From positions 268,405 through 332,404 of the forward strand of contig JAJEEG010000006.1 of the NCBI GenBank assembly GCA_022821085.1: a stretch of 64,000 bases of DNA, written 5' to 3'. Shown here piece after piece: positions 10,782-41,957 of this stretch (its first letter is position 1; each line of letters starts with the position of its first letter). The stretch comes from Candidatus Latescibacterota bacterium. GTDB taxonomy: Bacteria; JAAXHH01. Both the position numbers and the translations under genes were made by a program. The notes under the pieces are model-generated. The model saw only the letters and a program-made list of their open reading frames with translations. It did no database searches and was not told the DNA's origin.

Positions 10782-13700
10782 TCACGGCACCCCGGTGCTG
10801 ACGACGACCTTCAGGCCCGGTTCGGGCAGCGTGCGACGCGCGGACACCCGGGATGTTCCCGGCGCCGGCCAGTCACGGAGGAAACCCCGGATTTCACCGG
10901 TGACCTCATCCAGCAGCAGTGCGGCGGACGAACCGCCTTCCACACCGCTATCCAGGCCGCCGTCCCGACCGCCGTCCAGGCCGCCTTTCTTGCTCATCGC
11001 TACAATGCCCCCGGGTCCGGACAGTTCGATACGCCCCAGCGCAGCGGGCCAGTCCGCGCTCAGCGGAACCGCGAAGACGAACCCGCCGGCTTCGACGTTG
11101 CCTTCCCCGCACACGATCTCGTCCATGGCGAAGCTCATATCGAATAGCGTGTTTCCATTGGCGGCCGCCCCGGATATCCGGTAGGGGCCGCGCTCCGGAG
11201 GCAGGGTCGGCGGCGCGTCGACCACGAATGAAGGCTCCAGGTAGAGCGCTCCGTCCTCGTCGACGCCTCCCCAGACCAGCAGGCTCTTGCCGGACGGCGA
11301 GAAGGATGAAACGGAGGGACGGTGCGACGCCCCGGACAACCTGTATTCCATCGACTTCCTGAAATTATAGTCGCTGGTCCAGTCGGGCGGACCGCAACCT
11401 GACATGTGATCCGGTGTAAACGGCGGCACAAGTTCGTTATTCCAGATATCATATCCCCAGACGCCGATATTTCCATCCGGGTAAGGGTAATTCTCGTCGA
11501 TGCCCGTCGGCCTTCCACACGGCGCATGCCCCAGGCTGAAGTTGTGTCCCAGTTCGTGGCCGATGTAGTAGGGATGAAGTTCGGCAACGGAATCGAGACC
11601 AGGCCTGAAGGCCCGTCCCCCTCCGCCGTAGACGATGCCCAGGTAGTACCAGTCCGCGCTGTCCATGGTTCGGGTCATCCGGGTCAGAAGGAGCGTGGAA
11701 TGCGTATCTACCGGCTCTTCCGAAACCCATACCGGGCTTCGAGCGTCCACAACCAGCTCGTGTACCGGAAGGTAAGTCATGGTCGGTCTCAGGTACTCGG
11801 AAGCCGATGTAACGCCGTTGATCTCCGCCAGTAGCGCTTCGTCCGGATTATCCGTCCATACCAGGGGAACCAGGGTCAGTTTCATCGGCGGAATCTCGTG
11901 CACGGCAACGGGGATCGCGCCCGATGCGGGAAGGCGGTCGGGCAACGGTACGGGCGCATCGTGAGTTCCATCCGGATCGATCTCTATGACCATCTCCAGT
12001 GTCGGCTGGATGACCGAACTGGGTATCATCGCGTTGGCCGTGGCTTCAAGGTCTCCCGCGTCGATGAGCGGCGGAATGACCTTGCCTTCGGTCCGCAGAT
12101 TCGTGACGTGTACCTGCGCATTGTTCAGGAAGAACCGCGCGGTCATGGGCGGCATGGGCGTTTCTACGGGCGCCGAGATGAATACGCGCAGGAGCGCTTC
12201 TTCTCCCGCCACCAGGGGCACGCTTGATCCCAGGGTCTGGGTCGACTGGGTCAGTACGGCCTTCGAACTCACCACGTTCACCTCCAGACAGGTGTTTACG
12301 CGGGAGTTGGGAATCGTATTGAGCCACTCCCACAGTACAGAATCTACGGGCTCGCACAACCTGGTGAGATCGAGCCGCAGTTCTTCCAGCATCAATCCGG
12401 TCAGGGCCGCCGGGATTCCTCCGGTGAGTCTGGCGTTATAGGACAGGTCGAGCTTTTTGAGGCTGACCAGACCACCGAACGACTCAGGCACGGCGCCCGT
12501 AAGCTCGTTATCCCGCAAGTCCAATTCCACGAGTTGCCCGAGCCGCCCCAGTTCGGGGGGGATTTCGCCCGTTAAACCGTTCCAGGGCATCTGCAGCTTC
12601 TCGAGATGCTCAAGCGCTCCCAGATCGGGCGGAATGGCCTCCGTCAGTCTGTTTACTCCCAGATCCAGTATGACTAGATGGGAGAGTCGTCCCAACTCGG
12701 ATGGGATGCCTCCCGTCAACCGGTTATTCGAAAGACTCAGTACCTTCAGTTGTTCAAGCTGCCCGAGTTCCGGCGGGATTTCGCCCGATAACGAATTGCC
12801 GGTCAAATACAGAGACTCGAGCTTTTGCATTTGCCCGATTTCGGAAGGGATGTCGCCGGTCAACCGATTAAGTGCGAGGCTCAGAAAGGTCAATTGGGAG
12901 ATTTGCCCCAGTTCGGAGGGGATGCCTCCCGTCAACCGGTTGTTGTAGAGATCGAGGTCGTTGAGTTTTTTGAGTCTCCCGAGCTCCGCCGGTATTTCAC
13001 CTGATAACTGGTTGTTTGATATACCCAGTGACGTCAGGGATTCCATCCTCCCCAGCTCCGCCGGTATTGCGCCGGTTAACTGGTTGTTTTCGAGTTTCAG
13101 TCCCTCCAGATTTTCCAGCAGCCCGAGTTCCGCCGGTATTTCTCCGGTCAGCCGGTTAAGGCCGAGATACAGGAGTTTCAGGTTTTTCAGCTCGCCCAGC
13201 GCGGATGGGATATCGCCCGACAACTGGTTGTTATAGAGGTTGATGACCGTGAGGCCGGAGAGTTGCCCCAGTTCGCGAGGTAAACGGCCGGACATTTCAT
13301 TCCCGGGAAGCCACAACGACCATATGCGGCCTTCCTGGTCTGTGTCTATACCATGCCAGGTCCTCAGGGGTTCCCCGCTCAGCCAGTTCGTGTTGTCCGA
13401 CCAGTTGGGCCCGTCCGTTGCGTTGTACAATGCGATCATAGCCTGCAGATCCGGTCCCGCCTCCTCTGCCGAGACGACGAACCTGGCGATGGCCTCCGCG
13501 TCCCCGGACCGGACCGAAATCCGGGCCGATCCTTCGCCGGTGGCGGTCACCAGCCCGTCCGGACTGACCGTCGCCACGGATTCGTCGCTGCTCGACCATT
13601 CCATGTCGGCCTCTTCGATGGGATGTTCGTTCCGATCGAGCACGACGGCGGCCAGCCGAATGGTGTCGCCGACGGCCAGGGCCCAGGCTTCTTCCGGTCC

Positions 13701-14390
13701 CAGGACGATACTGGTTGCGGCCTGCAGGACCGTAACGTCGACGGTCTCCTCGATGCTTCCTGATTGCGCGGTTACCTGCGCGGTCCCGTTGCCGGCCGAG
13801 AATACCCATCCGCTGTCGCTGACCGTTGCCACGGCCTCGTCGCTGCTCGACCACGCCACGACGGCCTCTACGATCGGATGTCCGTTCTGGTCCATCGCGG
13901 TCGCGACGACCCGGACCGAATCGCCTATGGCCGTAAACATTGCCTCGCCCGGTTCGACTATCAGTTCGACCACATCCTGCATGACCGCGACTTCGATACT
14001 CGCTGTCAGGGTCAGGCTGCGCACCGTGATGCGGGCCTTTCCCGGACCTCGCGCCGTCAACAGGCCCCTGTTGGAGTCAATAGCGGCAACGCGCACGTTG
14101 CTGCTGGACCATACGAGTGGAATGCCCGTCAATGGAGCGTTTCGCTGATCGAACACCGTGGCGGTCAACTGCCGGGTCTGACCGATCGAGTGGAAAGAGA
14201 CGGACGAGGGCATGATTTCGATCCGGGTCGCCACCGGCGCCGGTGGCGGAGGCGGGGACGTAGGCGGGGACGTAGGCGGTTGGGGCGGGCGAGCAGGCTG
14301 GGAAGGGCTTTCCTTTCCGCAGGCGGCCAGGACGAACAGGATAAGGCAAACGGCCAACCCGCGAGTACAAGGTGACGGGAAAGAGTACAA
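10782..14390 (-). CDS. large surface lipoprotein: Big_2 Ig-like domains + leucine-rich repeats + C-terminal metzincin-like zinc metalloprotease domain
   Basis: Lipobox LAACGKES and a Pro-rich linker. Four or more Big_2 modules (VATRIEI...). About 12 plant-type LRRs (LxxLxLxxNxLTGxIPxELGxL). HELGHNFSLGH zinc-binding motif encoded near 11525-11560. Confidence 0.8.
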   Translation of the reverse strand: MYSFPSPCTRGLAVCLILFVLAACGKESPSQPARPPQPPTSPPTSPPPPPAPVATRIEIMPSSVSFHSIGQTRQLTATVFDQRNAPLTGIPLVWSSSNVRVAAIDSNRGLLTARGPGKARITVRSLTLTASIEVAVMQDVVELIVEPGEAMFTAIGDSVRVVATAMDQNGHPIVEAVVAWSSSDEAVATVSDSGWVFSAGNGTAQVTAQSGSIEETVDVTVLQAATSIVLGPEEAWALAVGDTIRLAAVVLDRNEHPIEEADMEWSSSDESVATVSPDGLVTATGEGSARISVRSGDAEAIARFVVSAEEAGPDLQAMIALYNATDGPNWSDNTNWLSGEPLRTWHGIDTDQEGRIWSLWLPGNEMSGRLPRELGQLSGLTVINLYNNQLSGDIPSALGELKNLKLLYLGLNRLTGEIPAELGLLENLEGLKLENNQLTGAIPAELGRMESLTSLGISNNQLSGEIPAELGRLKKLNDLDLYNNRLTGGIPSELGQISQLTFLSLALNRLTGDIPSEIGQMQKLESLYLTGNSLSGEIPPELGQLEQLKVLSLSNNRLTGGIPSELGRLSHLVILDLGVNRLTEAIPPDLGALEHLEKLQMPWNGLTGEIPPELGRLGQLVELDLRDNELTGAVPESFGGLVSLKKLDLSYNARLTGGIPAALTGLMLEELRLDLTRLCEPVDSVLWEWLNTIPNSRVNTCLEVNVVSSKAVLTQSTQTLGSSVPLVAGEEALLRVFISAPVETPMPPMTARFFLNNAQVHVTNLRTEGKVIPPLIDAGDLEATANAMIPSSVIQPTLEMVIEIDPDGTHDAPVPLPDRLPASGAIPVAVHEIPPMKLTLVPLVWTDNPDEALLAEINGVTSASEYLRPTMTYLPVHELVVDARSPVWVSEEPVDTHSTLLLTRMTRTMDSADWYYLGIVYGGGGRAFRPGLDSVAELHPYYIGHELGHNFSLGHAPCGRPTGIDENYPYPDGNIGVWGYDIWNNELVPPFTPDHMSGCGPPDWTSDYNFRKSMEYRLSGASHRPSVSSFSPSGKSLLVWGGVDEDGALYLEPSFVVDAPPTLPPERGPYRISGAAANGNTLFDMSFAMDEIVCGEGNVEAGGFVFAVPLSADWPAALGRIELSGPGGIVAMSKKGGLDGGRDGGLDSGVEGGSSAALLLDEVTGEIRGFLRDWPAPGTSRVSARRTLPEPGLKVVVSTGVP

Positions 14391-14715: not shown

Positions 14716-17091
14716 GTGGAAAAAAACATGACGAGTATGGAAAAACTCAGGCGGGAGAATGCCGCGTTGCGCGAGAGTATCTCCAAGCTGAACTCGGCCA
14801 GCCTGCGTATCAGCGCGAGCCTGGACCTGGAGACCGTCCTGCAGGAAGTCGTGGAAAGCGCCCGTGCACTGACCCGGGCGAGCCACGGCGTCATCGCAAC
14901 GATAGACGAGGAAGGCCGCCCCGTTGACATTCTCACTTCCGGCCTCACGGACGAAGAGCGACGGCAGATGATGGACTGGCCGGATGGTATCAAGCTCTTC
15001 GAACATTTACGCGACCTGCCGGGCGCACTGAGACTGCCGGACGTGCAGGACTACGTGCGGTCGCTGGGATTCTCCCCGGACGTACTGCCGTTCAGTACCT
15101 TCCAGTGCATGCCCATGCGCTCTGGCGCACAACACGTCGGCAGCTTTTTTCTCGCCGATAAGGAGGGTGGCGAGCACTTCACGGACGAGGACGAGGAATT
15201 CCTCGTGCTGTTCGCGTCGCAGGCGGCCACGGCGATCGTCAATGCCCGCGCGTACCGGGCGGAGCAGAGCGCGCGCGCCGACCTGGAAGCCCTGGTCGAG
15301 ACTTCACCGGTGGGCGTTGCGGTTTTTGACGCGGGGTCCGGGTGGCCGAAGTGGTTCAACCGCGAAGCGAGACGGATCGTGGAAGTCCTGATCAGCCCGG
15401 GAAGTCCGCCGGAGTCTTTGCTGGAACAGATCACATTGAAGCGCGCCGACGGACGCGAGATCGCGCTGGACCAGTTCCCGTTGTCCGAGGCGCTGATCCA
15501 CGCCGAGAACGTACGGGCCGAGGAGATCGTGCTATCGGTACCCGACGGACGTTCCGTCGAGACACTGGTAAACTGCACGCCGATCCATTCCGATGAAGGA
15601 GAGGTCCAGTCCGTCGTCGTCACGATGCAGGACCTGGCGCAGATCAAGGAACTGGACCGGTTGCGGACCGAATTCATCAGCATGGTGAGTCACGAGCTTC
15701 GGGCCCCCCTTACCTCCATCAAGGGCTCTGCGGCCACCCTGATGGAGGAATCACCGGGGCTGGATCCCGCGGAGACGCGCGAGTTCTACCGCATCATCAT
15801 GGATCAGACCGATCAAATGCGCCGGTTGATCGGCGACCTGCTGGACGCGGGCCGCATCGACACGGGCACGCTGTCGGTGACACCCGAAGCATCTGAAATC
15901 GCCGTCCTGGTCGACCAGGCGCGAAGCTCCTTTCAGAGCGGCGGCAGCAAGCACACGCTCAGGATCGATCTTCCACCGGACCTGCCGAGGGTCATGGCCG
16001 ATCGCGCGCGCATCATACAGGTATTGAACAACCTGTTCGTCAATGCCGCGCGTCACGCACCGGAGTCCTCCCCCATCCAGGTCTCCGCCATACATGATTG
16101 CCAACACGTCGAAGTCTCGGTACGCGACGAAGGCATCGGCGTGGCGCCTGAGATGTTGCCGCACCTTTTTCATAAGCACATCGGACTTGACGACCGTGCA
16201 CGCTCTTCCAATACAGCCGGCACGCGGCTGGGTCTTGCCATCTGCAAGGGGCTCGTCGAGGCCCACGGAGGGCGAATCTGGGCGGAAAGCGCGGGTATCG
16301 GCCAGGGCACGCGCATTGCCTTCACCATCCCGGTGATCCAGGAATCCGTGACCGCGGACCGCGCAACGATTCGGAGGGAAGCGCCCGGCGAAGACGAAGT
16401 GTTCGAACCCACGCGCATACTCGTGGTCGACGACGACCCAAGGATGCTGCAGTACATTCGGGACGCCCTCACCGAATCCGGTTTCGACCCGGTCGTAACC
16501 GGCGACCACGTCGAACTGTCGAGCATCATTCGGGCCGAAAAACCCCAACTGGTCCTGCTCGACCTGATATTGCCCGATACAGATGGCATAGAGTTGATGA
16601 GAAGCTTATCAGAACTATCCGATATCCCGGTCATCTTCATCTCTGCCTACGGCCGGGACGAAACCATCGCGAAGGCGCTGGAAGAGGGTGCGGACGACTA
16701 CCTGGTCAAACCCTTCTCGCCGACGGAACTCGTGGCAAGGATACGGACGTCGTTGCGCAGGCGGGCCGATCCCGAACCGTTCCTGCTGGGTGAGCTGGCG
16801 ATCAACTACGACCGTCGCCTGGTGAGCATGGGCGGCGTCCAGGTCGATCTCACCGCCAAGGAGTTCAACCTGCTTCGCGTACTCTCCCTGAACGCGGGCC
16901 GGGTGTCGACCTTCGATGCCCTGATTCGACAGGTTTGGGGTGCGCATGGCTACGCGAACCACAAGCTTGTGCGGAGTCTGATCAAAACGCTTCGGCGCAA
17001 GATTGGAGACGATGCGCGCGCGCCCGACTACATCTTCAACGTACGCGGGGTCGGGTACCGAATGGCCCGGCCCGGCGATGTCAAGGTCTGA
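14716..17091 (+). CDS. fused two-component protein: GAF/PAS sensor histidine kinase + receiver + OmpR-type winged-helix DNA-binding domain
   Basis: HisKA H-box (FISMVSHELRAPL). HATPase region. REC domain (ILVVDDDP...LLDLILPDTDG). Trans_reg_C tail (LTAKEFNLLRVL...GVGYRM). Confidence 0.85.
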   Translation: MEKNMTSMEKLRRENAALRESISKLNSASLRISASLDLETVLQEVVESARALTRASHGVIATIDEEGRPVDILTSGLTDEERRQMMDWPDGIKLFEHLRDLPGALRLPDVQDYVRSLGFSPDVLPFSTFQCMPMRSGAQHVGSFFLADKEGGEHFTDEDEEFLVLFASQAATAIVNARAYRAEQSARADLEALVETSPVGVAVFDAGSGWPKWFNREARRIVEVLISPGSPPESLLEQITLKRADGREIALDQFPLSEALIHAENVRAEEIVLSVPDGRSVETLVNCTPIHSDEGEVQSVVVTMQDLAQIKELDRLRTEFISMVSHELRAPLTSIKGSAATLMEESPGLDPAETREFYRIIMDQTDQMRRLIGDLLDAGRIDTGTLSVTPEASEIAVLVDQARSSFQSGGSKHTLRIDLPPDLPRVMADRARIIQVLNNLFVNAARHAPESSPIQVSAIHDCQHVEVSVRDEGIGVAPEMLPHLFHKHIGLDDRARSSNTAGTRLGLAICKGLVEAHGGRIWAESAGIGQGTRIAFTIPVIQESVTADRATIRREAPGEDEVFEPTRILVVDDDPRMLQYIRDALTESGFDPVVTGDHVELSSIIRAEKPQLVLLDLILPDTDGIELMRSLSELSDIPVIFISAYGRDETIAKALEEGADDYLVKPFSPTELVARIRTSLRRRADPEPFLLGELAINYDRRLVSMGGVQVDLTAKEFNLLRVLSLNAGRVSTFDALIRQVWGAHGYANHKLVRSLIKTLRRKIGDDARAPDYIFNVRGVGYRMARPGDVKV

Positions 17092-17131
17092 CACCAGACG
17101 CCGGCGAACGCTTCGTACCAGGTCGGTTTGC

Positions 17132-17521
17132 TCAGTCCTGCCTCTGCTTCAAAGCCCTGACTTCTCCTTCAACGCGGCCAAGCCTTTTGTTCAAGTCATG
17201 TATATCCGCCCTGACAACCTTGAATTCCTCCTGCATTTCGGTCCTGAGCGACTGCATTTCATCCCTGACGGCCTTGAATTCCTCCTGCATTTCAGCCCTG
17301 ACGGCCTTGAATTCCTCCTGCATTTCAGCCCTGAACGACCGCATTTCAGTCCTGAACGACCTGAATTCCTCCTGCATTTCGGTGCGCAGTTCACCGGTGG
17401 ATTGACCCATAAAGGTGATGACCGCAATGACAAGAATACCGACGGCAACCAGCACCTGGACAAATGCGATCAGTTTCTGGTACATTTCGTTCCCCGCTTT
17501 CGTTTTGCGTTCATGATTCAT
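17132..17521 (-). CDS. small N-terminal-TM protein with 11-residue repeats and C-terminal DLNKRLGRVEG motif (paralog family)
   Basis: 129 aa. TM helix (LIAFVQVLVAVGILVIAVITF). Repeats of the form EMQEEFKAVRA encoded by 33-bp DNA tandem repeats. Confidence 0.65.
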   Translation of the reverse strand: MNHERKTKAGNEMYQKLIAFVQVLVAVGILVIAVITFMGQSTGELRTEMQEEFRSFRTEMRSFRAEMQEEFKAVRAEMQEEFKAVRDEMQSLRTEMQEEFKVVRADIHDLNKRLGRVEGEVRALKQRQD

Positions 17522-17800: not shown

Positions 17801-18180
17801 GTCGTTTTGTGATGGGAGAACGCTGACAAGCCCTACGCTAACAGACGCGTCGCGGTCCAGCGCGTCGCGACTCAGCGCTGCGCTGCGAGTCAGTTTAAAA
17901 ACCCTCACTCCCGTCCTTTTGCGTCAACGGCTTGACTGCCCCCTCCACGCGTCCGAGCCTTATTCTCGAACTTTTCACGAAAACACGACAGTCCCCCTTG
18001 CCTTATACCATTACTTATCAGATATTTCACAATACCTCATGACGGAGTAACCACCTCTACGGAAGTTTCTTTCGGTAAAGTAGGAAGCACTTTTACAGCC
18101 AACGGCTTTCCCATCCATATAAAAATCGTCAAATGGGCGTGTAGTATAACCCCAGTGTTTTTCCATCCGAAAGGATTGCC

Positions 18181-19419
18181 ATGACACGCTTGCGTCTCAG
18201 ACTCGTGTGCATTGCGTTACTGCCGGTATCCCTGTTCGTGCTTTCCACCTGCGGCAAGGATAGTTCCACCGCCCCAGGCGCTCCAACACCCCCTGCCCCG
18301 GTACCCGCCAGCATCGAAATCACCCCGGCGTCCGCTACGTTGAACGCCATAGATCAAACCGTTGAGTTGGCTCCAGTAGTACTTGACGAGAATGGTGCTG
18401 AGATCGCCGATGCTTCGGTTACGTGGACGAGTGGCGCCGTGGACGTTGCGACGGTTTCCGATCAAGGCCTGGTCACGGCGGTCAACAACGGGTCCGCGGT
18501 GATCACGGCACAGTCGGACAGTCTTTCGGCATCGGCGAGTATCACCGTCTCGCAGGTGCCGGTCCGTATCGTAATCGAGTTCCCGACCACGGAATCGGGC
18601 CAGGTCATACTGACGGACATGGGCGAGTTAAAACTGGTAGCCACGGTACAGGATAGAAACGGACATCCGGTGGCCGGAGCGGAAGTGACATGGTCGAGCA
18701 GCGATGAATCCGTAGCGACCGTCAACGATCAAGGAGTGGTAAACGAGGTCTCGAGCGGGTTTACTCAGATCACAGCCCGATCGGGAGACCTGTCAGACTC
18801 GATTAATTATGGTGTCTCGTTAAGTGTTGCACTGGGCAGGTTGTATATGGCGACAAATGGTCCGGATTGGACACAAAACACGAACTGGTTGACTGATAAA
18901 CCGTTGGAAGAATGGCACGGTATTACGGTCGGCTTGTTTGGACAGCCTACGATACTGAACCTGAACAACAACAACCTGGGTGGCTCGATTCCGACGGATG
19001 CGGGACAATTGTATTCTCTTGGAGAACTGAATCTGGGATCCAATCGGATTTCGGGCGAGATTCCCGCAACGATAGGAAAGCTGGAATTTCTCGGCAAACT
19101 GAACCTGAGCGACAACCAGTTGTCAGGAGAAATACCCGCCGAGTTGGGACGACTTAAAGAACTGGAGGTTCTGGCACTCGACAGGAACGAGTTGACCGGT
19201 GAGCTTCCGGCCGAACTGGGTAACCTTGCCAACCTCCGGGAATTACACCTGCAGGAAAATGAATCATTGAACGGACCTCTGCCTGATTCGTTTACGAATC
19301 TCGAGCTTCAAACCCTGGACCTGGATGGAACAGCGCTTTGCGTGCCGGCCAACTCGGAGTTCCAGGCCTGGATCGAAGGGATTGATAACGTAACCGCCGC
19401 CACGTGCCCTGATCCGTAG
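18181..19419 (+). CDS. Big_2 + LRR surface lipoprotein (paralog family)
   Basis: Lipobox LSTCGKDS. Two Big_2 domains. LRRs with the conserved C-cap GTALCVP...FQAWI...C. Confidence 0.8.
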   Translation: MTRLRLRLVCIALLPVSLFVLSTCGKDSSTAPGAPTPPAPVPASIEITPASATLNAIDQTVELAPVVLDENGAEIADASVTWTSGAVDVATVSDQGLVTAVNNGSAVITAQSDSLSASASITVSQVPVRIVIEFPTTESGQVILTDMGELKLVATVQDRNGHPVAGAEVTWSSSDESVATVNDQGVVNEVSSGFTQITARSGDLSDSINYGVSLSVALGRLYMATNGPDWTQNTNWLTDKPLEEWHGITVGLFGQPTILNLNNNNLGGSIPTDAGQLYSLGELNLGSNRISGEIPATIGKLEFLGKLNLSDNQLSGEIPAELGRLKELEVLALDRNELTGELPAELGNLANLRELHLQENESLNGPLPDSFTNLELQTLDLDGTALCVPANSEFQAWIEGIDNVTAATCPDP

Positions 19420-19543: not shown

Positions 19544-19730
19544 GCAATATAGCGGATGATGAATACGCTGTTAAATGTCGCATCCGGTAATCACAGCTTC
19601 ATCCGAAGTGAAAAAGATCACGATCATTCTGGCACGACTACTCTTATGGGCAGGTCGTTAATGGTACGACCTGCCGGCCACAAAGCGGCGTCTCAGGTAT
19701 CGGAAGATCCTTTGAAACAGGTCGCCACGC

Positions 19731-19946
19731 TTACTCCCGCCCCTGCGTCAATGCCCTGACTTCCCCCTCCACGCGTCCAAGCCTTTTGTTCATGTCCTGC
19801 ATTTCGATGCGCAACTCACTGGTGGATTGCCCCATCCAGGTGATGACGGCGATGACGAGCATACCGATGGCAACCAGCGACTGGACAAATACGATCAGTT
19901 TCTGATACATTTTATTCCCTGCTTTCGTTTCGCGTACATGATCCAT
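19731..19946 (-). CDS. short paralog of the N-terminal-TM / RLGRVEG small protein family
   Basis: 71 aa. Same N-terminus (KAGNKMYQKLIVFVQSLVAIGMLVIAVITWMGQST) and DMNKRLGRVEGEVRAL tail. No internal repeats. Confidence 0.55.
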   Translation of the reverse strand: MDHVRETKAGNKMYQKLIVFVQSLVAIGMLVIAVITWMGQSTSELRIEMQDMNKRLGRVEGEVRALTQGRE

Positions 19947-28711: not shown

Positions 28712-29069
28712 CAGGACTTTCCGCACCTAGCCTTCAGATCCTACCCAGCCTTCAAACCCTTCCCGGATAGATGGAACGGCGAGGCGGAACTTTCGTAACA
28801 CAGGATTCCGGCCTGATCGCTAACGATCCGGAAGCGCTGGCGGTATGTGTTTGTGCCTTCCTCCCCTCCCATGCTCAAATAACCACATTTTAACCCCATA
28901 ACATCACGCTTAAATTATATGTCAAGGTATTGAAACAGATGATACCTGGCTATGGGTGATTTTATGTTGTAAATCCAAATATGATGCATACTTTGATCAT
29001 TCCACTTTGCAGAATGTTAGTCGAAAACTCGAATGTAATGCCGACCACACCGGTCCCGGGGAACGTCCT

Positions 29070-30968
29070 ATGAATATCCGTCCTTTGAAGCGTCTGTACA
29101 TAACGACCTTCTCAAGTTTCAGTACTGTATTTTTGATCACGGCCTGTCTGGTCCTGGTCACCTGCGGCAAGGACAGCACGACGAAGCCTGCGGCGCCTGA
29201 ACCGCCTCCGCCCGCAACACCCGCGCCGCCGCCCCCGGCGCCCGTACCTACCCGGATTACGATCACCCCTTCGTCCGTTTCGCTCAACTCCGTTGGCCAG
29301 ACCATGCCCTTGACGGCCAAGGTCTTCGATCAGAACAACGCGGTGCTCGGCAGTGCAACAGTTTCGTGGTCCAGCAGCGACGAGGGCGTGGCGACGGTCG
29401 GCAGCCGGGGGTTGGTCACCGCCGTCTCGAACGGTACGGCGACCATCACGGCGAGTTCAGGCATCGCTTCTGCGACCGCGGCCGTCACGGTGATGCAGTC
29501 CGCAAGCCGCATCGTCCTTGAGTCGTCCTCGGCAACGCTTGTGTCCCTCGGGGAAACCGTGCAACTCACCGCCACTGTGCAGGATGCGAACGGTCAAGCA
29601 GTAGACGGCGCGGCTGTAACCTGGTCGAGCAGCGACGAGGGCGTGGCGACAGTCGGCGCCCAGGGCTTGGTCACGGCAGTCTCGAACGGCAGCGCCACGA
29701 TCACGGCCAGATCGGGCAGCGTTTCTGCGACCGCGGCCGTCACGGTCATGCAAACCGCCCACGGAATCGTCCTTGAACCGCAGATGGCGACGCTCACCAG
29801 GGCCGGCGAGACCGTGCAGCTGGCCGCGGCCGTACTGGACCTGAACGAACAGCCCGTGGACGGCGCCACCGTCTCATGGGCCAGTAGCGACCCGGGCGTC
29901 GCGGCGGTCGACGATGATGGACTGGTGACGGCGGTTGCGAACGGCAGCGCCGGGATCACCGCGTCTTACGGCGACATATCCGCCACGGCCCGGATCGAAG
30001 TGGAGATCGCCGACCCGGGCGATAGAGACGCGTTGATTGCGCTGTATGTCGCCCTTGACGGACCGAACTGGACGTATAATACCAACTGGCTGTCCGACCT
30101 GCCTCTGGGTGAGTGGTATGGCGTGGGCACCGACGACACTGGAAGAGTCACCTGGCTGAGTCTCGCCTTCAACGAACTCAGCGGCGCCATTCCTTCGGAA
30201 CTGGGCAATCTGGCCAAACTGGAGGAACTCAATCTTAGCCAGAATCGGTTGTCGTGCGTGATTCCACCTGAATTGGGGAACCTGACCAACCTGTACGGGC
30301 TCTACCTTTACTCCATTCCGATCTTGCCGGCGGTCTTTCCGCCGGAGTGGGATCCTGTCCCCGACCCGGCTTGCCGCATCCCTGCCGAGTTGGGGAACCT
30401 GACCAACCTGGAGGAACTGAGGCTTGGCCTCAGAACGCTGTCTGGCCGCATTCCTGCCGAGTTGGGGAACCTGACCAACCTGCAGGTACTGGATCTCCGC
30501 TTCAACGCATTGTCCGGCGGCGTGCCGCCGGAACTGGGGAAGCTGCCCAACCTGTATTCGTTGAATCTCGGTTTCAACGCGTTATCTGGCAGCATCCCTG
30601 CCGAGTTGGGGAATCTGGCCAATCTGATGGAACTGAACCTGACCCTCAACGCGTTGTCGGGCAGCATCCCGCCTGAGTTGGGCAACCTGGCCGGCCTGGA
30701 AGTGCTGGAACTTGGCTTAAATGCGTTGTCCGGCAGTGTCCCGCCTGAGTTGGGAAACCTCTCCGAACTCACATATCTTTCTTTGGTTTACAATGAGGAC
30801 CTGTCGGGTCCGCTGCCCGCCACGTTCACCAACCTCAACTACCTGGAGGGGTTGGATCTGTCTTATACCGGCTTGTGCGTGCCGCCGGAACCTGCGTTCC
30901 GGGCGTGGCTGGAGCGGTTTCAGGCTGCCGATCAAGTGGTGTACTGCGGAGGGATGCAGGGCGGTTAA
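29070..30968 (+). CDS. Big_2 + LRR surface lipoprotein (paralog family)
   Basis: Start placed at the ATG (29070) that gives the signal peptide/lipobox LVTCGKDS. Pro-rich linker. Four Big_2 domains (VPTRITI...). About 9 LRRs. C-cap GLCVPPEPAFRAWLERF...C. Confidence 0.75.
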   Translation: MNIRPLKRLYITTFSSFSTVFLITACLVLVTCGKDSTTKPAAPEPPPPATPAPPPPAPVPTRITITPSSVSLNSVGQTMPLTAKVFDQNNAVLGSATVSWSSSDEGVATVGSRGLVTAVSNGTATITASSGIASATAAVTVMQSASRIVLESSSATLVSLGETVQLTATVQDANGQAVDGAAVTWSSSDEGVATVGAQGLVTAVSNGSATITARSGSVSATAAVTVMQTAHGIVLEPQMATLTRAGETVQLAAAVLDLNEQPVDGATVSWASSDPGVAAVDDDGLVTAVANGSAGITASYGDISATARIEVEIADPGDRDALIALYVALDGPNWTYNTNWLSDLPLGEWYGVGTDDTGRVTWLSLAFNELSGAIPSELGNLAKLEELNLSQNRLSCVIPPELGNLTNLYGLYLYSIPILPAVFPPEWDPVPDPACRIPAELGNLTNLEELRLGLRTLSGRIPAELGNLTNLQVLDLRFNALSGGVPPELGKLPNLYSLNLGFNALSGSIPAELGNLANLMELNLTLNALSGSIPPELGNLAGLEVLELGLNALSGSVPPELGNLSELTYLSLVYNEDLSGPLPATFTNLNYLEGLDLSYTGLCVPPEPAFRAWLERFQAADQVVYCGGMQGG

Positions 30969-36804: not shown

Positions 36805-36840
36805 GTAGTCGCGTTTCCTTCAGCCTGTCCTGTTGCATCA

Positions 36841-36937: not shown

Positions 36938-37177
36938 ATGACCGCAATGTCCCGCGAGAACTGGGCCTTTGGCGCGCAGATCGTATCGGCCATCGGCATT
37001 CTCACAATCGCAGTCGTCACCTTCATCAATCAATCCAACAAGGAATTCCGGGATGAGATTAGGACCGAATTGGCCGGGTTGCGGACCGAACTCACCTCGA
37101 TTCGTTCCGAAATCCACGACATGAATACACGACTCGGTCGCGTCGAAGGCTACCTGCGCGTATCTGTAAACGAATAA
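36938..37177 (+). CDS. small N-terminal-TM protein with HDMNTRLGRVEG motif (paralog family)
   Basis: 79 aa. TM (IVSAIGILTIAVVTF). Helical repeats (EFRDEIRTELAGLRTELTSIRSEI). Confidence 0.65.
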   Translation: MTAMSRENWAFGAQIVSAIGILTIAVVTFINQSNKEFRDEIRTELAGLRTELTSIRSEIHDMNTRLGRVEGYLRVSVNE

Positions 37178-37449: not shown

Positions 37450-37815
37450 ATGTCAAGTAACCTGCAAATGATGACCCGTAACCTGCTGCCGTTCCGGCTA
37501 GCGATGATTGTCGCGATGGGACTGCTTGTGGCCTGTGGGGGAGACGATAGTCCCGTGGCGCCGGCGCCTGATCCAGATCCACCGGAGGCGACGCCAACGC
37601 CGCCGCCATCAGGACGGGCCTGCACCGTCGGACTTGAACTGGGTGCCGGTCAGAGTTGCACGTTCGGCGGAGTTAAGTTCGAAGTCAGGGACGACGGATT
37701 CGGGTGTGCGTTCGGCGGCAGCATCTGCGCGGGTTCGGGAGTGTCGCTGAACAACTTCAGCGCCAAAAAGGTTTCAGACAACCCGGTGCGTTGGAGAATC
37801 GAAGCGCTGCCATAG
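37450..37815 (+). CDS. hypothetical small lipoprotein (Cys/Gly-rich)
   Basis: Signal peptide plus lipobox LLVACGGD, a Pro-rich linker and four further Cys residues. Confidence 0.45.
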   Translation: MSSNLQMMTRNLLPFRLAMIVAMGLLVACGGDDSPVAPAPDPDPPEATPTPPPSGRACTVGLELGAGQSCTFGGVKFEVRDDGFGCAFGGSICAGSGVSLNNFSAKKVSDNPVRWRIEALP

Positions 37816-37916: not shown

Positions 37917-38261
37917 ATGGCAATTCAGTACTCGAGTCGTTTCCTGCATTTCATACTGGCATTGGGTTTGACGATCGGTCTGGCAGCCTGTGGGAACGGC
38001 GTGGGATCGTCGTCATGGAATTGCGAAGTGTCCTTGCGGTTGGATTCTGTGTCCGGGGCGGGTAGCGGTAGCGGCGGCAGCCGTGACGAAGCGTTGCGGA
38101 CCGCGCTGGAGACCGCCTGCTCGAAACTGAATCTCGATCAGGACGAGCTTACCCGATGTAAGCAAAACATGGACTTCGGCGTAACGCGAACGTTCGGTAA
38201 CATCACCGTCGTGACGCCCGCGGAGAGAAGTATCAGTTGCAGTTCATCTTCATCATTCTGA
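37917..38261 (+). CDS. hypothetical small lipoprotein
   Basis: ATG at 37917 is preceded by gggagg. Lipobox GLAACGNG. Ser/Gly-rich, with four Cys residues. Confidence 0.45.
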   Translation: MAIQYSSRFLHFILALGLTIGLAACGNGVGSSSWNCEVSLRLDSVSGAGSGSGGSRDEALRTALETACSKLNLDQDELTRCKQNMDFGVTRTFGNITVVTPAERSISCSSSSSF

Positions 38262-38387
38262 GGACGCGGTCGCGGCCATGCCGTGAAGTCCTGGATGGAA
38301 ATCCACCCGGCAATCGTTCATCTGGTCGACACCCACCATGGAAAGTCCGACCCCATTTGCTCCGCCGGCCCAGCCTCCTGCTTCTCC

Positions 38388-38485
38388 CTAACTAAAAAAA
38401 CCACGAGTATCGCCTGGTGATCTCCGACTAAACACTTTAGAGGTCGGTTGTTCATGCTTTACCGCTATCACCAGGAGGTCGGAAG
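38388..38485 (+). promoter_or_regulatory. conserved structured leader, copy 2
   Basis: Same nested inverted repeats as 36841-36937, located immediately upstream of the 38486 start. Confidence 0.5.
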
Positions 38486-38737
38486 ATGACCGGAATGTCC
38501 CGCGAAAACTGGACCTTTGGCGCGCAGATCGTGTCGGCCATAGGCATCCTCGTAATCGCAGTCGTCACTTTCATCAATTCATCCAACAAGGAATTCCGGG
38601 ATGAGGTTCGGGCCGAGTTGACCGGATTGCGGACGGAAATGCAATCCGAATTCGCCTCCATACGTTCAGAGATGCACGATATGAACACGCGCCTCGGTCG
38701 CGTCGAAGGATACCTGCGTGTGTCCGTAAACGAATAG
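38486..38737 (+). CDS. small N-terminal-TM protein with HDMNTRLGRVEG motif (paralog family)
   Basis: 83 aa, about 85% identical to 36938..37177. Confidence 0.65.
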   Translation: MTGMSRENWTFGAQIVSAIGILVIAVVTFINSSNKEFRDEVRAELTGLRTEMQSEFASIRSEMHDMNTRLGRVEGYLRVSVNE

Positions 38738-38825
38738 AATGATCGCTGCTGTCGGTACTGCCTGAATGACGGAATGCATGCTGGTATGTGAATGAAGAAC
38801 AGTCAGAAAAGCTGAGGTCTAAATA

Positions 38826-39089
38826 ATGAGCGAACACAGCAAGAGAGATTGGTCATGGTCTCCGGTTATTACCATGGCCGGAATGCATATCATGATGACG
38901 GGTATCATCGTTACGATAATGCTCTTCTTAAATGGTGATCTTAGTAACAGGATGCTATCGGTAGAAGAGAAATTGAGAGACTTGATCGAGGTTGTATCGG
39001 GCATGCAGACCGAAATCGGTGCAATTAAACAGGAAGTGGATGTAATTAAACAGGAAGTGGATGAAATTAAACGGGAAGTGTCCAAATAG
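38826..39089 (+). CDS. small N-terminal-TM protein with heptad/11-mer repeats (divergent member of the family)
   Basis: 87 aa. TM (MTGIIVTIMLFL). C-terminal repeats IKQEVDVIKQEVDEIKREV. Confidence 0.5.
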   Translation: MSEHSKRDWSWSPVITMAGMHIMMTGIIVTIMLFLNGDLSNRMLSVEEKLRDLIEVVSGMQTEIGAIKQEVDVIKQEVDEIKREVSK

Positions 39090-39114
39090 AAATCAGTCAG
39101 GGAGAAATCGTTCC

Positions 39115-39519
39115 ATGGAAATCGCTCAACTGATCGTATCCCCGGCCATCTTGTTGGGAGCGTTCATTTTCTTCTGGAAAGAATCCAAGGCGGGTCGCAT
39201 GGAACTCGAGACCCGGCTGGTACAGCGCATGGATCGCATGGAGGACAGGCTGGAAGCGCGTTTTGTCGAGTCGGAAGCGCGCTTTGTCGCGCTGGAGGAC
39301 AAGATGGATAGACGCTTTATCGCGACTGATGCGCGCATTGTTGCGCTGGAAAACAAGATGGATAAACGCTTTGTCTCGTTGGAGGACAAGATGGATAAGC
39401 GCTTTGTCGCTCTGGAGGACAAGATGAACGAACGCATCGTCTCACTGGAGGACAAGATGGACGTTCGGGTTGGCCGACTGGAAGGGGTGCTGATTACTAC
39501 GCAGCAGAAGGCGTCTTGA
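39115..39519 (+). CDS. small N-terminal-TM protein with 11-residue repeats (ALEDKMDKRFV x6) and VGRLEGV tail
   Basis: ATG at 39115 is preceded by agggag. TM (IVSPAILLGAFIFFW). Repeats encoded by 33-bp DNA periodicity. Confidence 0.6.
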   Translation: MEIAQLIVSPAILLGAFIFFWKESKAGRMELETRLVQRMDRMEDRLEARFVESEARFVALEDKMDRRFIATDARIVALENKMDKRFVSLEDKMDKRFVALEDKMNERIVSLEDKMDVRVGRLEGVLITTQQKAS

Positions 39520-39527
39520 TTAACGTG

Positions 39528-41957
39528 CTACGGTCCGGAACAGAATTGCACACCGGAACTACTTCGTATACCGCTGATCCACGCCCGGAAATCCGCGGTC
39601 GGGGGTACACACAGGCCGGTGTTTTGCAGCGTCAGATCCTGCATGAACTCGAGCCCGGAAAACGAATCCGGCAATGGTCCGGATAGTCCGGGATTATCGG
39701 CGAGCCAGAGTAACCTGAGGCCGGTGAGTTGTCCCAGTTCGTCCGGGATCGTTCCGGTCAGCCGGTTATCGTCGAAGGTCAGCGACAACAGGTTGTTGAG
39801 TTTACCAAATTCCGGTGGGATTGTCCCGGACAGCCGGTTGTCCTTGAACCAGAGCTCCCTCAAGTTCGAAAGCTGTGCCAGTTCCGGCGGGATGTTCCCG
39901 GTCAGTTCGTTCCGGTCGAAATATAGCAATTCGAGCTTGGATAGCTGTCCCAGTTCCGGCGGAATGTTCCCGGTCAATATGTTCCGATTGAAATCCAGGA
40001 AGGTGAGCTCGGAGAGTTGAGCCAATTCCGGTGGTATGGGTCCCGTCAATCGATTTTTGGCAAGCGACAGATGGGTGAGTGCGGTGAGTTGGGCCAATTC
40101 CAACGGGATATCCCCCGTCAGCCTGTTGCTGCTGAGCCCCAGATGAGTAAGGTCAACGAGTTGCCCCAATTCCGGCGGAATGATTCCCGTCAGGTTGTTG
40201 CCTGTAAGCGTCAGGCGTTCAAGGGCGGTCAATTGTCCCAGTTCCGGCGGGATGTTCCCCGTCAACTCGTTTCCGGCAAGAGCAAGGACTGTCAGGTTCA
40301 CCAACTGCCCGATCTCCGGTGGAATATCTCCCGACAACTGGCTGTTGAGTATACTCAGCCAGGTAAGGTTGGTCAGTTGCCCGATTTCCGGCGGAATGTT
40401 CCCCGTCAGATCGGTGCTGTCGAGACTCAGAGTACCCAATTGGGTCAGTTGCCCCAGTTCCGGCGGGATCCCGCCCGTCAACCCGTTGCCGGACTGCCCC
40501 AGCCAGATGAGGTTGGCGAGCAGCCCGAATTCCGGTGGCAGGTTACCCGTCAGATCGTTGTACCTGAGGTCCAGCACGGCAAGCGAGGCGAGATAGCACA
40601 GTTCAGCGGGAAGGGGGCCCTGGAGATTGTTGCGCGGCAGTTGCAGGCGCACCACCTCTCCGGATGGAGTTGCGATGACGCCATGCCAGTCGCTAAGAGG
40701 TGCATCGCTTAACCAGTTGTCGTTGTTGGTCCATTCGTCCCCGTTCGTGCTGCGGTACAGGATCGCCAGGGCCTCGCGGTCCGGAACCGCTTCCTTCACA
40801 GTGACGGTCGCCACGGAAGTGGTCTCGCCTGAACGGGCGGTGATCTCCACGGTGCCGCCCGCAACGGCGGTCACCAGGCCCTGTTCATCGACCGTTGCGA
40901 TCGTTTCGTCACTGCTTGCCCAGGTCACGTCCGCGCCGTCTATCCTGTGCCCCATATGATCGAGTACCGTGGCCGTGAGCTGTGCCGTATCGCCGGCCGC
41001 CGCCAGGATCGTTTCCACCGGATCGACTACGATGCTGGCGGGCGACTGCATGACGGTAACGTCGCTGCTTACCGTTAGATCGCCTGAGGTGGCCGTGATG
41101 GTTGCGGCGCCGTTGGCCACCGCGGTCACGAGACCGTCAGTGCTCACCGTCGCCACGGAAGCGTCGCTGCTTTGCCAGGTCACGCCGGCCCCTTCGATGG
41201 CCCGGTTATTCGGATCGACCACCATTGCGATGAATTGGACGGTTTCGCCAAAGGCCGTGAGGGTGGCCTCAGGCGGATCGATCACGATACCGGTGGGCGT
41301 CTGCATGACCCTGACGGTGACGCCTTGCTCGGTACTGCCCGACCGGGCGGTTATCCTGGTTGTGCCGTTGCCTGTCGAGGTAACCAGTCCGGTAGTGCTC
41401 ACGCGTGCCACTTCCGTATCGCTGCTCCGCCAGGTCACGTTGGCCCCTTCGATCGTCTGCCCGTTGCGGTCCTGTACTGTTGCGGTGAGCTGCACCGTCT
41501 CCCCGATGGCCGTCAAGGTGGCCTCCGTGGGTTCGATGGTGATCCTGCCGGCGGTCTGTACCACTTTTATTTCAACATCTCGCGATACGCCGCCGGACCT
41601 CGCCGTAATGCGGATTATCCCGTACGCGACCGCCGTCGCCAGGCCGCCCGAACTGACCGACACGATCCTGGGGTCCGCACTGGTCCAGGTTACGGAAGCG
41701 CCTGTCATTACAGCGTTATTCTGATCGAAGACCTGGGCCGTCAGTTGGACCGTCTGGCCGATCGCGTTCAGCGTCGCCGAGGCCGGCGTGATGGTAATGC
41801 GGGTCGCAACCGGAGTCGGCGGCGGGGGCGGGGGCTGCGTCGGGGCCGGTGGCGACGGCGCGGGAGCGGTGGCGCTGTCCTTTCCGCAAGCGGCGATCAG
41901 CGCAATCAGCGTGCCGAATGCGAGCGCGGTAAAGGTATTCAACAGGATTCGTGACAC
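39528..41957 (-). CDS. Big_2 + LRR surface lipoprotein (paralog family)
   Basis: Lipobox LIAACGKDS and a Pro-rich linker. Five Big_2 domains (VATRITI...). About 12 LRRs. C-cap GLCVPPTADFRAWISGI...C. Confidence 0.8.
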   Translation of the reverse strand: MSRILLNTFTALAFGTLIALIAACGKDSATAPAPSPPAPTQPPPPPPTPVATRITITPASATLNAIGQTVQLTAQVFDQNNAVMTGASVTWTSADPRIVSVSSGGLATAVAYGIIRITARSGGVSRDVEIKVVQTAGRITIEPTEATLTAIGETVQLTATVQDRNGQTIEGANVTWRSSDTEVARVSTTGLVTSTGNGTTRITARSGSTEQGVTVRVMQTPTGIVIDPPEATLTAFGETVQFIAMVVDPNNRAIEGAGVTWQSSDASVATVSTDGLVTAVANGAATITATSGDLTVSSDVTVMQSPASIVVDPVETILAAAGDTAQLTATVLDHMGHRIDGADVTWASSDETIATVDEQGLVTAVAGGTVEITARSGETTSVATVTVKEAVPDREALAILYRSTNGDEWTNNDNWLSDAPLSDWHGVIATPSGEVVRLQLPRNNLQGPLPAELCYLASLAVLDLRYNDLTGNLPPEFGLLANLIWLGQSGNGLTGGIPPELGQLTQLGTLSLDSTDLTGNIPPEIGQLTNLTWLSILNSQLSGDIPPEIGQLVNLTVLALAGNELTGNIPPELGQLTALERLTLTGNNLTGIIPPELGQLVDLTHLGLSSNRLTGDIPLELAQLTALTHLSLAKNRLTGPIPPELAQLSELTFLDFNRNILTGNIPPELGQLSKLELLYFDRNELTGNIPPELAQLSNLRELWFKDNRLSGTIPPEFGKLNNLLSLTFDDNRLTGTIPDELGQLTGLRLLWLADNPGLSGPLPDSFSGLEFMQDLTLQNTGLCVPPTADFRAWISGIRSSSGVQFCSGP

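Follow-up and report, generated by a model that had tools for sequence, protein, structure and literature searches.

Four long-diverged Ig-like and leucine-rich-repeat predicted lipoproteins of an uncultured, probably marine Latescibacterota bacterium, one carrying an M66-like metzincin module

Four genes of one layout

Four intact reading frames, here called A to D, lie in the window (the whole 64,000-nt stretch of Candidatus Latescibacterota DNA that was analysed), and the list of open reading frames and the translations confirm that they share one common layout, as the initial annotation had described (Table 1). The genes come from an uncultured, probably marine bacterium, and the closest relative with a sequenced genome is a MAG of an Ircinia sponge symbiont. 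The longest open reading frame of gene C starts at GTG 28956, while the ATG at 29070 gives a better signal peptide (MNIRPLKR...). A tentative promoter-like site lies upstream of gene A (14460-14431, minus strand).

Table 1. Coordinates of the four genes and of the parts of gene A within the window
Feature	Position	Strand	Description
Gene A	10782..14390	-	1202 aa; ORF, translation, Pfam; L001 encodes a 1198-aa orthologue; signal peptide of lipoprotein type, Pro-rich spacer, 3 Big_2, N-cap, ~14 plant-type LRRs, two-Cys cap, linker, M66-like metzincin module
A, signal peptide (residues 1-24)	14319..14390	-	lipobox L-A-A-C at end; predicted mature N-terminus C-G-K-E-S
A, Pro-rich spacer (residues 25-52)	14235..14318	-	…PPTSPPTSPPPPPAPV
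A, three Big_2 modules (residues 53-310)	13461..14234	-	~86 aa each; Pfam Big_2, Big_1 and Big-like matches
A, LRR block (residues 311-675)	12366..13460	-	N-cap (…ALYNATDGPNWSDNTNWLS…W.GI), 12 regular 24-residue plant-specific LRRs, two terminal irregular units
A, LRR C-cap (residues 676-701)	12288..12365	-	two Cys; TRLCEPVDSVLWEWLNTIPNSRVNTC
A, protease module (residues 702-1202)	10785..12287	-	low-confidence linker, beta-sandwich, metzincin catalytic domain, two C-terminal beta-sandwich domains
A, zinc-binding motif HELGHNFSLGH (residues 945-955)	11526..11558	-	H945, E946, H949, H955
A, candidate Met-turn D-H-M-S-G-C (residues 994-999)	11394..11411	-	M996, 41 residues past third His
Gene B	18181..19419	+	412 aa; translation, Pfam, repeat register; signal with L-S-T-C, spacer, 2 Big_2, N-cap, ~6 LRRs, cap; ends 3 residues past cap
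Gene C	29070..30968	+	632 aa; translation, Pfam, repeat register; signal with L-V-T-C, spacer, 3 Big_2, N-cap, ~9 LRRs (one unit degenerate, 39 residues), cap; ends 6 residues past cap
Gene D	39528..41957	-	809 aa; signal with I-A-A-C, spacer, 4 Big_2 (residues 50-388), N-cap helix, ~15 LRRs, cap; ends 3 residues past cap

All four translations carry C-G-K-[DE]-S after a hydrophobic stretch and then a Pro-rich spacer, in agreement with the initial annotation. The Cys of this motif stands at position 24, except in C, where it is residue 32, and an atypical Thr occupies lipobox position -1 in B and C. A lipoprotein N-terminus can be recognised in 85 relatives; 64 of these have Gly at position +2, and their modal motif is CGKDS (25 proteins). 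In the predicted structure of D, residues 1-42, including the stretch equivalent to the Pro-rich spacer of A, are disordered; then come four beta-sandwiches and a regular solenoid that bears a cap helix (pLDDT 86). The pTM of 0.56 is consistent with domains strung together flexibly, like beads. The Big_2 and LRR Pfam families score well over the cut-off in every one of the four proteins. With three Big_2 modules in A, two in B, three in C, and four in D, the range is 2-4 and not the two to five first counted. The motif V[AP]TRI[TE]I, thought to open the Big_2 modules, does stand at the head of the Big_2 chain in A, C, and D, but later modules start otherwise and B has VPASIEI. The Big_2 hallmark WxSS..VAxV is found in A at residues 94, 180, and 265.

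The LRR blocks are of the plant type, as proposed, with units of exactly 24 residues and the consensus LxxLxLxxNxLSGxIPxELGxL, and the block of A matches Pfam LRR_1, LRR_8, LRR_4, and LRR_14. A two-Cys cap closes the block in all four proteins, although the motif given for it (GLCVP...F[RQ]AW...C) does not cover A, which deviates (RLCEP...LWEW...C). B, C, and D end 3-6 residues past the cap and thus have no C-terminal sorting domain. Among orthologues, 0.07-0.09 of the LRR scaffold positions are substituted, compared to 0.28-0.45 at variable positions, indicating that the solenoid itself is under constraint. The concave LRR face varies only slightly more among orthologues than the other variable positions do (0.45 versus 0.37 in A and 0.34 versus 0.28 in D).

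The metzincin module of A

The C-terminal module of A follows a flexible linker of about 20 residues, whose pLDDT of 35-37 in the model means that no fixed geometry between the LRR block and the active site can be claimed. The metzincin-type zinc site HELGHNFSLGH reported for the 1202-aa protein is indeed present. A missing Met-turn or third zinc ligand, or a collapsed repeat behind the four copies, had been named as what would speak against the initial annotation; A has both the ligand and a candidate Met-turn, and the copies are distinct genes (see below). In 278 domains of the family, the zinc-site residues are conserved as His (273), Glu (268), His (275), and His (273), and the Met of the Met-turn is kept in 276, so that each of the five is retained in at least 96% of these relatives. 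Positions C280 and C321 (fragment numbering) each have Cys in 274 domains and Gly in the other four, and C999 of A probably pairs with C958. The two cap cysteines together with the two conserved protease cysteines would fit an oxidising, extracytoplasmic location. The family consensus of the Met-turn is DLMSYC, with Tyr after the Met in 253 of 278 domains, while in A and the relatives closest to it this place is taken by Gly, Ser, or Arg. A has Ser at the eighth position of the zinc motif; the counts at this place across the 278 domains are 150 for Ser, 53 for Asn, and 36 for Gly.

The Pfam M66 score of A is over the cut-off with a match to 54 of 306 profile positions, and the StcE PDB chain matches the module by sequence at E=0.47; the term M66-like therefore rests on the active-site region and the fold. 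The phmmer alignment pairs HELGHNFSLGH...WGYD...P.F of A with H(D)VGHNYGLGH...WGWD...P.F of StcE. Every domain of A is under purifying selection, with dN/dS values of 0.27-0.51 against the orthologue, compared to 0.04-0.33 for six neighbouring genes, and the catalytic domain shows a dN/dS of 0.27 and 87% identity to the orthologue.

Age of the paralogues and breadth of the family

The four genes are old, long-diverged paralogues of one family, with pairwise protein identities of 40-47% (E 1e-76 to 1e-165), and homogenisation among them is absent. The ongoing duplication suggested earlier is not supported by this identity, nor by the nearest relatives of A, C, and D elsewhere, which agree with them in whether a protease follows at the C-terminus; for C, the nearest relatives by the cap region, P0357 (80%) and P0394 (69%), both end at the cap. 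What stands of the proposed module shuffling is a shift in Big_2 and LRR number between orthologues, since the L001 orthologue of B lacks one 24-residue LRR and the Big_2 count in the D lineage is four versus six to seven.

Among sequenced genomes, MAG jk18x7bins.54 is the nearest, with 87% protein identity and conserved synteny, and orthologues of A and B are present in an independent MAG. The jk18x7 bins come from the sponge Ircinia cf. reteplana, and LRR, fn3, cadherin, and other eukaryotic-like domains are reported to be enriched in those Ircinia microbiomes (PMC9531527); LRR proteins have also been reported in sponge Latescibacterota MAGs (PMC12993501). These reports are domain counts in which the architecture of A-D and the protease fusion are not described, and our literature search found no paper joining M66 with sponge symbionts.

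At E≤1e-3 the protease module has 4056 representative clusters, of which 980 pass E≤1e-30. In the best 150 matches listed, the module is C-terminal in proteins of 436-2731 aa. At least three plant-type LRR motifs are found in 123 of the best 144 representatives (median LRR count 11.5), and in 110 of these 144 the protease module comes after the cap motif. The joining of LRRs to a metzincin, taken at first for an uncommon combination, is thus widespread, and the design of Ig-like stalk, plant-type LRRs, and protease proves to be the usual architecture of a very large family in the databases, so far unstudied. Its members bear database names from more than one habitat label.

Proposed function and comparison with known systems

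We propose, with a probability of about 0.6, that A-D are envelope-anchored binding proteins and that A is an LRR-tethered zinc endopeptidase acting on a protein ligand; the earlier suggestion of a targeted surface protease or adhesin is plausible. The proteins would be exported by a lipoprotein-type signal peptide and anchored by a lipid at the Cys of C-G-K-D/E-S, the disordered Pro-rich spacer and the 2-4 Big_2 Ig-like beads would keep the LRR off the membrane, and the terminal solenoid with its N-cap and two-Cys C-cap would be the ligand-binding part. To this A would add, after its linker, a beta-sandwich, the M66-like zinc endopeptidase, and two further beta-sandwiches, and its LRR may serve as a tethering or exosite domain that brings the ligand, most likely a (glyco)protein of the host or of the extracellular matrix, to the catalytic cleft. 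B, C, and D would be binders like A lacking the protease, either adhesins or decoys.

It is considerably less likely that A is a feeding protease, envelope-bound or released, which degrades environmental or host proteins for nutrition, with Big_2 and LRR mainly a spacer or scaffold that takes no part in target choice and with B, C, and D as functionally unrelated general adhesins. Such a role would suit the other secreted or anchored hydrolases in the window, among them a Trypsin_2-containing collagen-like lipoprotein (27788-28711), a phosphodiesterase, and an M14 carboxypeptidase, as well as the size of the family and its range of habitat labels. However, the LRRs kept by most of the best representatives would be costly for a mere spacer, and the strong conservation of the LRR scaffold also argues against it. 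We consider it unlikely that A-D act in the periplasm as lipoproteins of the inner membrane or of the outer membrane's inner leaflet, where they might, for instance, maintain the envelope or process proteins made by the cell itself. For related phyla, only K-(D/E)2 or Q-A-(D/E)2 has been described as a signal for lipoprotein export to the surface (PMC5080379), and C-G-K-D/E-S matches it only in part. No other secretion signal was seen in A-D, in line with a periplasmic location, but 2-4 Ig-like modules, a Pro-rich spacer, and a 15-repeat solenoid would be long for the periplasm. The nearest Ig-like and LRR analogues, the internalins and the Leptospira LRR lipoproteins, are surface proteins.

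It is quite improbable that the protease module of A has lost some or all of its activity and, as a pseudo-enzyme, now serves as a binding domain. The near-invariant Tyr of DLMSYC is replaced in A and its clade, and other members have clearly lost catalytic residues (HQLGH, AQQLGR, and ASNLGA, for example), indicating that loss of activity does happen in the family; A, however, keeps all four zinc-site residues and the Met, its catalytic domain is the conserved one described above, and many active metzincins, such as adamalysins and matrixins, also lack the Tyr. The internal repetition of the genes (72-nt and 255-nt periodicities) might suggest a collapsed or chimeric repeat produced by assembly, but such an artefact is rejected given the low identity between copies, LRR units that share at most 78% nucleotide identity, the intact frames, the orthologues of A and B in an independent MAG, a contig of a separate sequencing run that encodes the very same protein as B, and a protein 98% identical to D in another data set.

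StcE of enterohaemorrhagic E. coli is a secreted mucinase. Its zinc motif (MEROPS/Pfam M66; PDB 3UJZ) is of the same type as that of A, HE[LV]GHN[FY]xLGH, and the likeness goes on downstream (WG[YW]D...P.F), while the structural identity is only 16%; StcE lacks Big_2 and LRR, whereas the module of A stands C-terminally behind both in a predicted lipoprotein. Adamalysin/ADAM and other metzincins (M12B, fragilysin, ulilysin, and archaemetzincin) show 14-20% identity to the module, adamalysins match the family profile weakly, and Reprolysin_3 Pfam matches occur in 14 of 36 relatives; these proteins differ in their flanking domains, and A has Ser instead of Gly at the eighth zinc-motif residue.

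The ectodomains of plant LRR receptor kinases (FLS2, GSO1, PEPR1, BRI1, and also PGIP) share the 24-residue plant-specific repeat class, one of the LRR classes listed in PMC5976695, and receptor kinase ectodomains are the best PDB sequence matches (2e-151 to 1e-74). In contrast, the proteins described here are bacterial and have no transmembrane helix or kinase, their N-cap has no Cys pair, their C-cap (LC[VE]P...F.AW...C) differs, and their predicted anchor is an N-terminal lipid instead of a C-terminal helix. Listeria internalins and Leptospira LRR lipoproteins (LIC11098, LIC_11051 family) likewise combine LRRs and Ig-like modules in an anchored protein, but the NCBIfam scores are all far under the family cut-offs (internalin A, 45 versus 1600; LIC_11051 family, 84 versus 1000), and the order of anchor, Ig stalk, and LRR found here is the reverse of that in internalins.

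Layout of the four genes and their plant-type repeats

The open reading frames, their translations and the Pfam matches confirm the four genes A, B, C and D and the layout that they share, and Pfam and the structure models also agree with the domains named in the initial annotation (Big_2, plant-type LRR, a Cys cap and a protease domain). The open frame of gene C extends back to a GTG at 28956, and a proper signal peptide is obtained from the ATG at 29070. Big_2 (PF02368) scores 57-146 bits in 4/4 proteins against a Pfam cut-off of 22.8, and several LRR families likewise lie far above their cut-offs in A-D. Counting from hallmarks and repeat registers gives two to four Big_2 modules per protein rather than the two to five first proposed, and the motif V[AP]TRI[TE]I, described as the start of every module, opens module 1 in A, C and D and no other module. 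The two-Cys cap that ends the LRR solenoid is present as described, with the variant RLCEP...LWEW...C in A, and B, C and D stop 3-6 residues beyond it.

Features of genes A-D and their surroundings (window positions)
Feature	Position	Strand	Details
Gene A	10782-14390	minus	ORF, 1202 aa; 3 Big_2; about 14 LRR units
Gene B	18181-19419	plus	ORF, 412 aa; 2 Big_2; about 6 LRR units
Gene C	29070-30968	plus	ORF, 632 aa; 3 Big_2; about 9 LRR units, one degenerate (39 residues)
Gene D	39528-41957	minus	ORF, 809 aa; 4 Big_2; about 15 LRR units
Hybrid sensor kinase/response regulator	14716-17091	plus	GAF, PAS, HisKA, HATPase, receiver, winged-helix DNA-binding output
Collagen triple-helix lipoprotein	9811-10713	minus	
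Collagen triple-helix lipoprotein	25944-27398	plus	
Collagen triple-helix lipoprotein	27788-28711	plus	
Small coiled-coil gene	17132-17521	minus	
Small coiled-coil gene	36938-37177	plus	
Small coiled-coil gene	38486-38737	plus	
Small coiled-coil gene	38826-39089	plus	
Small coiled-coil gene	39061-39519	plus	
Small coiled-coil gene	50939-51268	plus	
Small coiled-coil gene remnant	17920-17961		
Small coiled-coil gene remnant	19710-19805		
Small predicted lipoprotein	37450-37815	plus	
Small predicted lipoprotein	about 37920-38261	plus	
Direct repeats flanking B	17111-17206, 19710-19805		96 nt, 78% identity

The N-termini of A-D consist of a short n-region with at least one basic residue, a hydrophobic stretch (mean Kyte-Doolittle 2.2-2.4) and a Cys followed by G-K-D/E-S and a Pro-rich spacer. 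A (LAAC) and D (IAAC) conform to the lipobox [LVI][ASTVI][GAS]C; in B (LSTC) and C (LVTC), position -1 is occupied by Thr. The Bacteroidota lipoprotein export signal is K-(D/E)2 or Q-A-(D/E)2 directly after the lipidated Cys (PMC5080379), and it is matched only partially in A-D, where C-G-K-D/E-S has one acidic residue, not two. Among 85 recognisable lipoprotein N-termini of the family, C-G-K-D/E-S is the modal form (25/85), and Gly stands at +2 in 64.

The LRRs of A-D are of the plant-type class, with units of exactly 24 residues that follow LxxLxLxxNxL(S/T)GxIPxELGxL and, together with a solenoid like that of plant receptors, have the features of the plant-specific LRR class. When the LRR domain of D was compared with PDB sequences, the best matches were all plant receptor-kinase ectodomains (GSO1, 2e-151; FLS2, 2e-125; then PEPR1, MIK2 and BRI1), and the first bacterial match was Leptospira LIC11098 (6e-59). 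In the AlphaFold model of D (pLDDT 86), residues 1-42 are disordered and are followed by four beta-sandwiches, a helix that forms the N-cap, and a regular solenoid that ends in a cap helix. In gene C, a degenerate 39-residue unit, LYGLYLYSIPILPAVFPPEWDPVPDPACRIPAELGNLTN (residues 408-446, window 30291-30407), forms an island within the regular 24-residue array. Listeria internalins were rejected as an assignment (best 45 bits against NCBIfam cut-offs of 1050-1600), as were the Xanthomonas type III effectors XopAE, XopAC and XopL (best 121 bits against cut-offs of 450-600), whose models match only the LRR part of A-D, proteins that have Sec-type signal peptides.

The metzincin module of A and its family

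The zinc motif of A, HELGHNFSLGH (residues 945-955), fits the HExxHxxGxxH spacing, with Ser, not Gly, as its eighth residue. Across 278 domain instances aligned to the family profile, this residue is Ser in 150, Asn in 53 and Gly in 36, while the three His are conserved in 273, 275 and 273 and the catalytic Glu in 268. M996 lies 41 residues past H955 and falls, in the model of A, between the active-site helix and the C-terminal helix; its sequence position and conservation mark it as a candidate Met-turn. The zinc site proposed in the initial annotation thus survives, with the third His ligand present and Met at the candidate Met-turn position kept in 276/278 relatives. The family consensus here is D-L-M-S-Y-C (Tyr in 253/278), and the Tyr after the Met is replaced by Gly, Ser or Arg in A, its orthologue and the nearest relatives. 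At two further positions, each is Cys in 274/278 and Gly in 4/278, and a disulfide between these conserved Cys positions of the module is likely, judging from the alignment.

Against Peptidase_M66 (PF10462; Pfam cut-off 20.6), A scores 28.1 bits at full length and 29.7 as the fragment; the match spans only profile positions 196-249 of 306, and 34/36 relatives match the same model. A phmmer search of the PDB with the C-terminal 524 aa of A found only StcE, a mucin-cleaving enzyme (E=0.47), aligned from the zinc motif through WGYD...P.F, and the family profile found weak adamalysin matches (E 0.016-0.9). The model of the C-terminal part of A, built with 35 relatives as input (pLDDT 82, pTM 0.82), contains a low-confidence post-cap linker, a beta-sandwich, an alpha/beta catalytic domain with the HELGH helix and two further beta-sandwiches. 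The modelled catalytic domain has the metzincin fold, with intact catalytic residues. In the database relatives P0273, P0111, P0279, P0199, P0211, P0033 and P0175, the catalytic Glu or a zinc His is replaced (e.g. AQQLGR, ASNLGA, HQLGH), and LRR-M66-like relatives with such replacements are probably inactive pseudo-proteases.

We searched 1.84 billion cluster representatives with the 501 post-cap residues of A and found the protease module in 4056 clusters (50% identity) at E<=1e-3 and in 980 at E<=1e-30. In the best 150 listed, it occupies the C-terminus of proteins 436-2731 aa long. At least three strict plant-type LRR motifs (median 11.5, maximum 40) are found in 123 of the best 144 representatives, the zinc motif in 122, the cap motif in 110 and Big_2 hallmarks in 71, and seemingly short relatives mostly start within an LRR. 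These numbers contradict the initial view that an LRR-metzincin fusion is an uncommon combination. The protease-less Big_2 + LRR architecture is very common too: of the candidates scored, 2212 proteins reach E<=1e-30. Labelled sources of the family are Gemmatimonadota, Candidatus Palauibacter and Acidobacteriota MAGs, and its entries bear names such as 'M66 family metalloprotease', 'leucine-rich repeat domain-containing protein' or 'Ig-like domain-containing protein'. A-D are nothing unusual within this very large family, whose database names are all generic. In the library searched, M66 peptidases combined with sponge, symbiont or LRR gave nothing relevant, nor did we find a paper there that describes the LRR-cap-M66-like family.

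Age of the paralogues and their neighbourhood

The nearest genome is the Candidatus Latescibacterota MAG jk18x7bins.54, with a protease module 87% identical to that of A and aligned blocks of 79-95% nucleotide identity to the window. The jk18x7 bins were obtained from Ircinia cf. reteplana by a study of the microbiomes of Caribbean Ircinia sponges, which reports that LRR and other eukaryotic-like domains are enriched there (PMC9531527).

A-D share only 40-47% pairwise protein identity, no pair of their LRR units exceeds 78% nucleotide identity, and the only tblastn matches of D in the window are A-D and Big_2 modules of a single collagen-like gene. Orthologues of A and B are found in an independent metagenome-assembled genome, a contig from an independent run encodes a protein identical to B, and a protein 98% identical to D exists elsewhere. 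With copies so divergent, and with A, B and D recovered from other data, the shared layout is neither chance nor an assembly artefact of a collapsed repeat.

Kinship was assessed on the last 150 residues plus the cap, compared with those of the collected homologues that have the cap motif. The nearest relatives of A have the protease, whereas those of C and D (about 50% up to 100% identity) all end at the cap; the nearest relative of B is protease-less at 60%, and its next matches have the protease (45-51%). The N-terminal halves of protease-bearing proteins from other organisms match B, C and D at 45-53%, just as closely as B, C and D match one another. Tblastn found no decayed protease relic downstream of B, C or D, indicating that these genes are not recent truncations. 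Taken together, the cap-region kinship, the cross-organism similarity and the lack of a relic indicate that the duplications are old and that the lineages of A, C and D each stably keep their state, with or without the protease. The proposed ongoing duplication is thus not supported by copies so divergent, whose nearest relatives, for A, C and D, keep the same C-terminal state.

The accompanying proposal of module shuffling holds in part, in that LRR and Big_2 numbers differ between orthologues. Compared with B, its sister-genome orthologue is shorter by exactly one 24-residue LRR and by 8 residues in the second Big_2 module. D-lineage proteins at 72-98% identity retain 12-14 strict LRR motifs, and those at 60-69% identity have 6-7 Big_2 modules versus 4 in D. 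In the test for homogenisation of LRR units, within-gene nucleotide identity was modestly raised in C (0.65) and D (0.575) compared with 0.51-0.55 between genes, but in neither A nor B. The rise in C and D suggests that units were duplicated within these genes in the past. Ongoing concerted evolution of the units is ruled out by this modest excess and by the absence of any pair above 78%. A is under purifying selection (dN/dS against its orthologue 0.27-0.51 per domain; 0.04-0.33 in six neighbouring genes), and B is more relaxed (0.47-0.64) with an unusually low dS. The orthologue comparison gave only a small excess of diversifying change on the concave LRR face.

B lies between direct repeats that are the 3' ends of small coiled-coil genes, and its synonymous divergence is about half that of its neighbours (dS 0.08-0.14 versus 0.23-0.42). 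In the sister genome (locus L001, 12753-14201), B is located elsewhere, between a collagen-like gene and an AMP-binding gene. The flanking repeats, the different site and the low dS suggest that the B cassette was moved or exchanged by recombination. The small coiled-coil family, with at least six genes and two remnants within the 64 kb, several beside LRR genes, encodes proteins with one membrane helix and 11-residue coiled-coil repeats, most ending in ...RLGRVEG..., whose Pfam matches are all of a generic coiled-coil kind. In locus L004, too, a distant LRR-M66 gene has a small CCDC90-like gene nearby. The accessory stretch that separates the coiled-coil genes from D contains two small predicted lipoproteins, the first of which has a Cys-Gly-Gly-Asp-Asp start and a Pro-rich spacer in the style of the LRR proteins.

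The three collagen-like lipoproteins have a signal peptide, Cys-Glu-Gly and long (G-P-x)n runs; in one of them Big_2 modules follow, in another a Trypsin_2 peptidase domain. The gene at 9811-10713 lies 68 nt downstream of A and the other two just upstream of C, in each case on the same strand. A collagen-like gene is found near A in the window, the sister MAG and a 72%-identity relative, with varying order and orientation. The hybrid sensor/regulator is divergently transcribed from A and adjoins it in the window, in L001 and in the 72%-identity relative, with a different orientation in the relative's locus L003; it is a possible regulator of A. Third-position GC is 0.62-0.76 in A-D and 0.83-0.93 in most surrounding housekeeping genes, with the HK-RR gene (0.77) as an exception. 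LRR, collagen-like and coiled-coil genes span 0.49-0.82 (e.g. B versus the housekeeping gene 20274-21395), and such low values suggest that accessory genes, or genes gained by horizontal transfer, are scattered among the core genes.

Proposed role in host contact

A-D would be lipidated at the Cys and projected from a membrane by the Pro-rich spacer and the Ig stalk, with the LRR solenoid binding a protein ligand. In A, the LRR would hold this ligand near a tethered zinc endopeptidase, and B, C and D would bind without cleavage. A host or matrix glycoprotein is the most attractive candidate target, given the sponge association and the relationship to StcE.

A more far-reaching and less likely reading, to which we assign a joint probability of about 0.25, sees in the LRR-cap-M66-like proteins a large class of 'receptor-guided' proteases, so far undescribed, of Gemmatimonadota, Latescibacterota and Acidobacteriota that are marine or live with sponges. 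The LRR would pick a specific host protein, such as a glycoprotein of the extracellular matrix or of immune recognition, and the tethered metzincin would cleave it. Under the same joint figure, B, C and D may serve as adhesins or decoys for these ligands or related ones, and gain and loss of LRR and Ig modules may adjust how far the proteins reach and what they recognise as the bacteria adapt to a host.

The family as a whole, more than this locus, is worth biochemical study, and one such study would annotate thousands of proteins. If the mode of action proposed first is right, A-D would provide a concrete molecular handle on host contact by uncultured sponge-associated bacteria, with a binding module of a known structural class, the plant-receptor-like LRR, on a defined stalk, coupled in one paralogue to a protease related to StcE.
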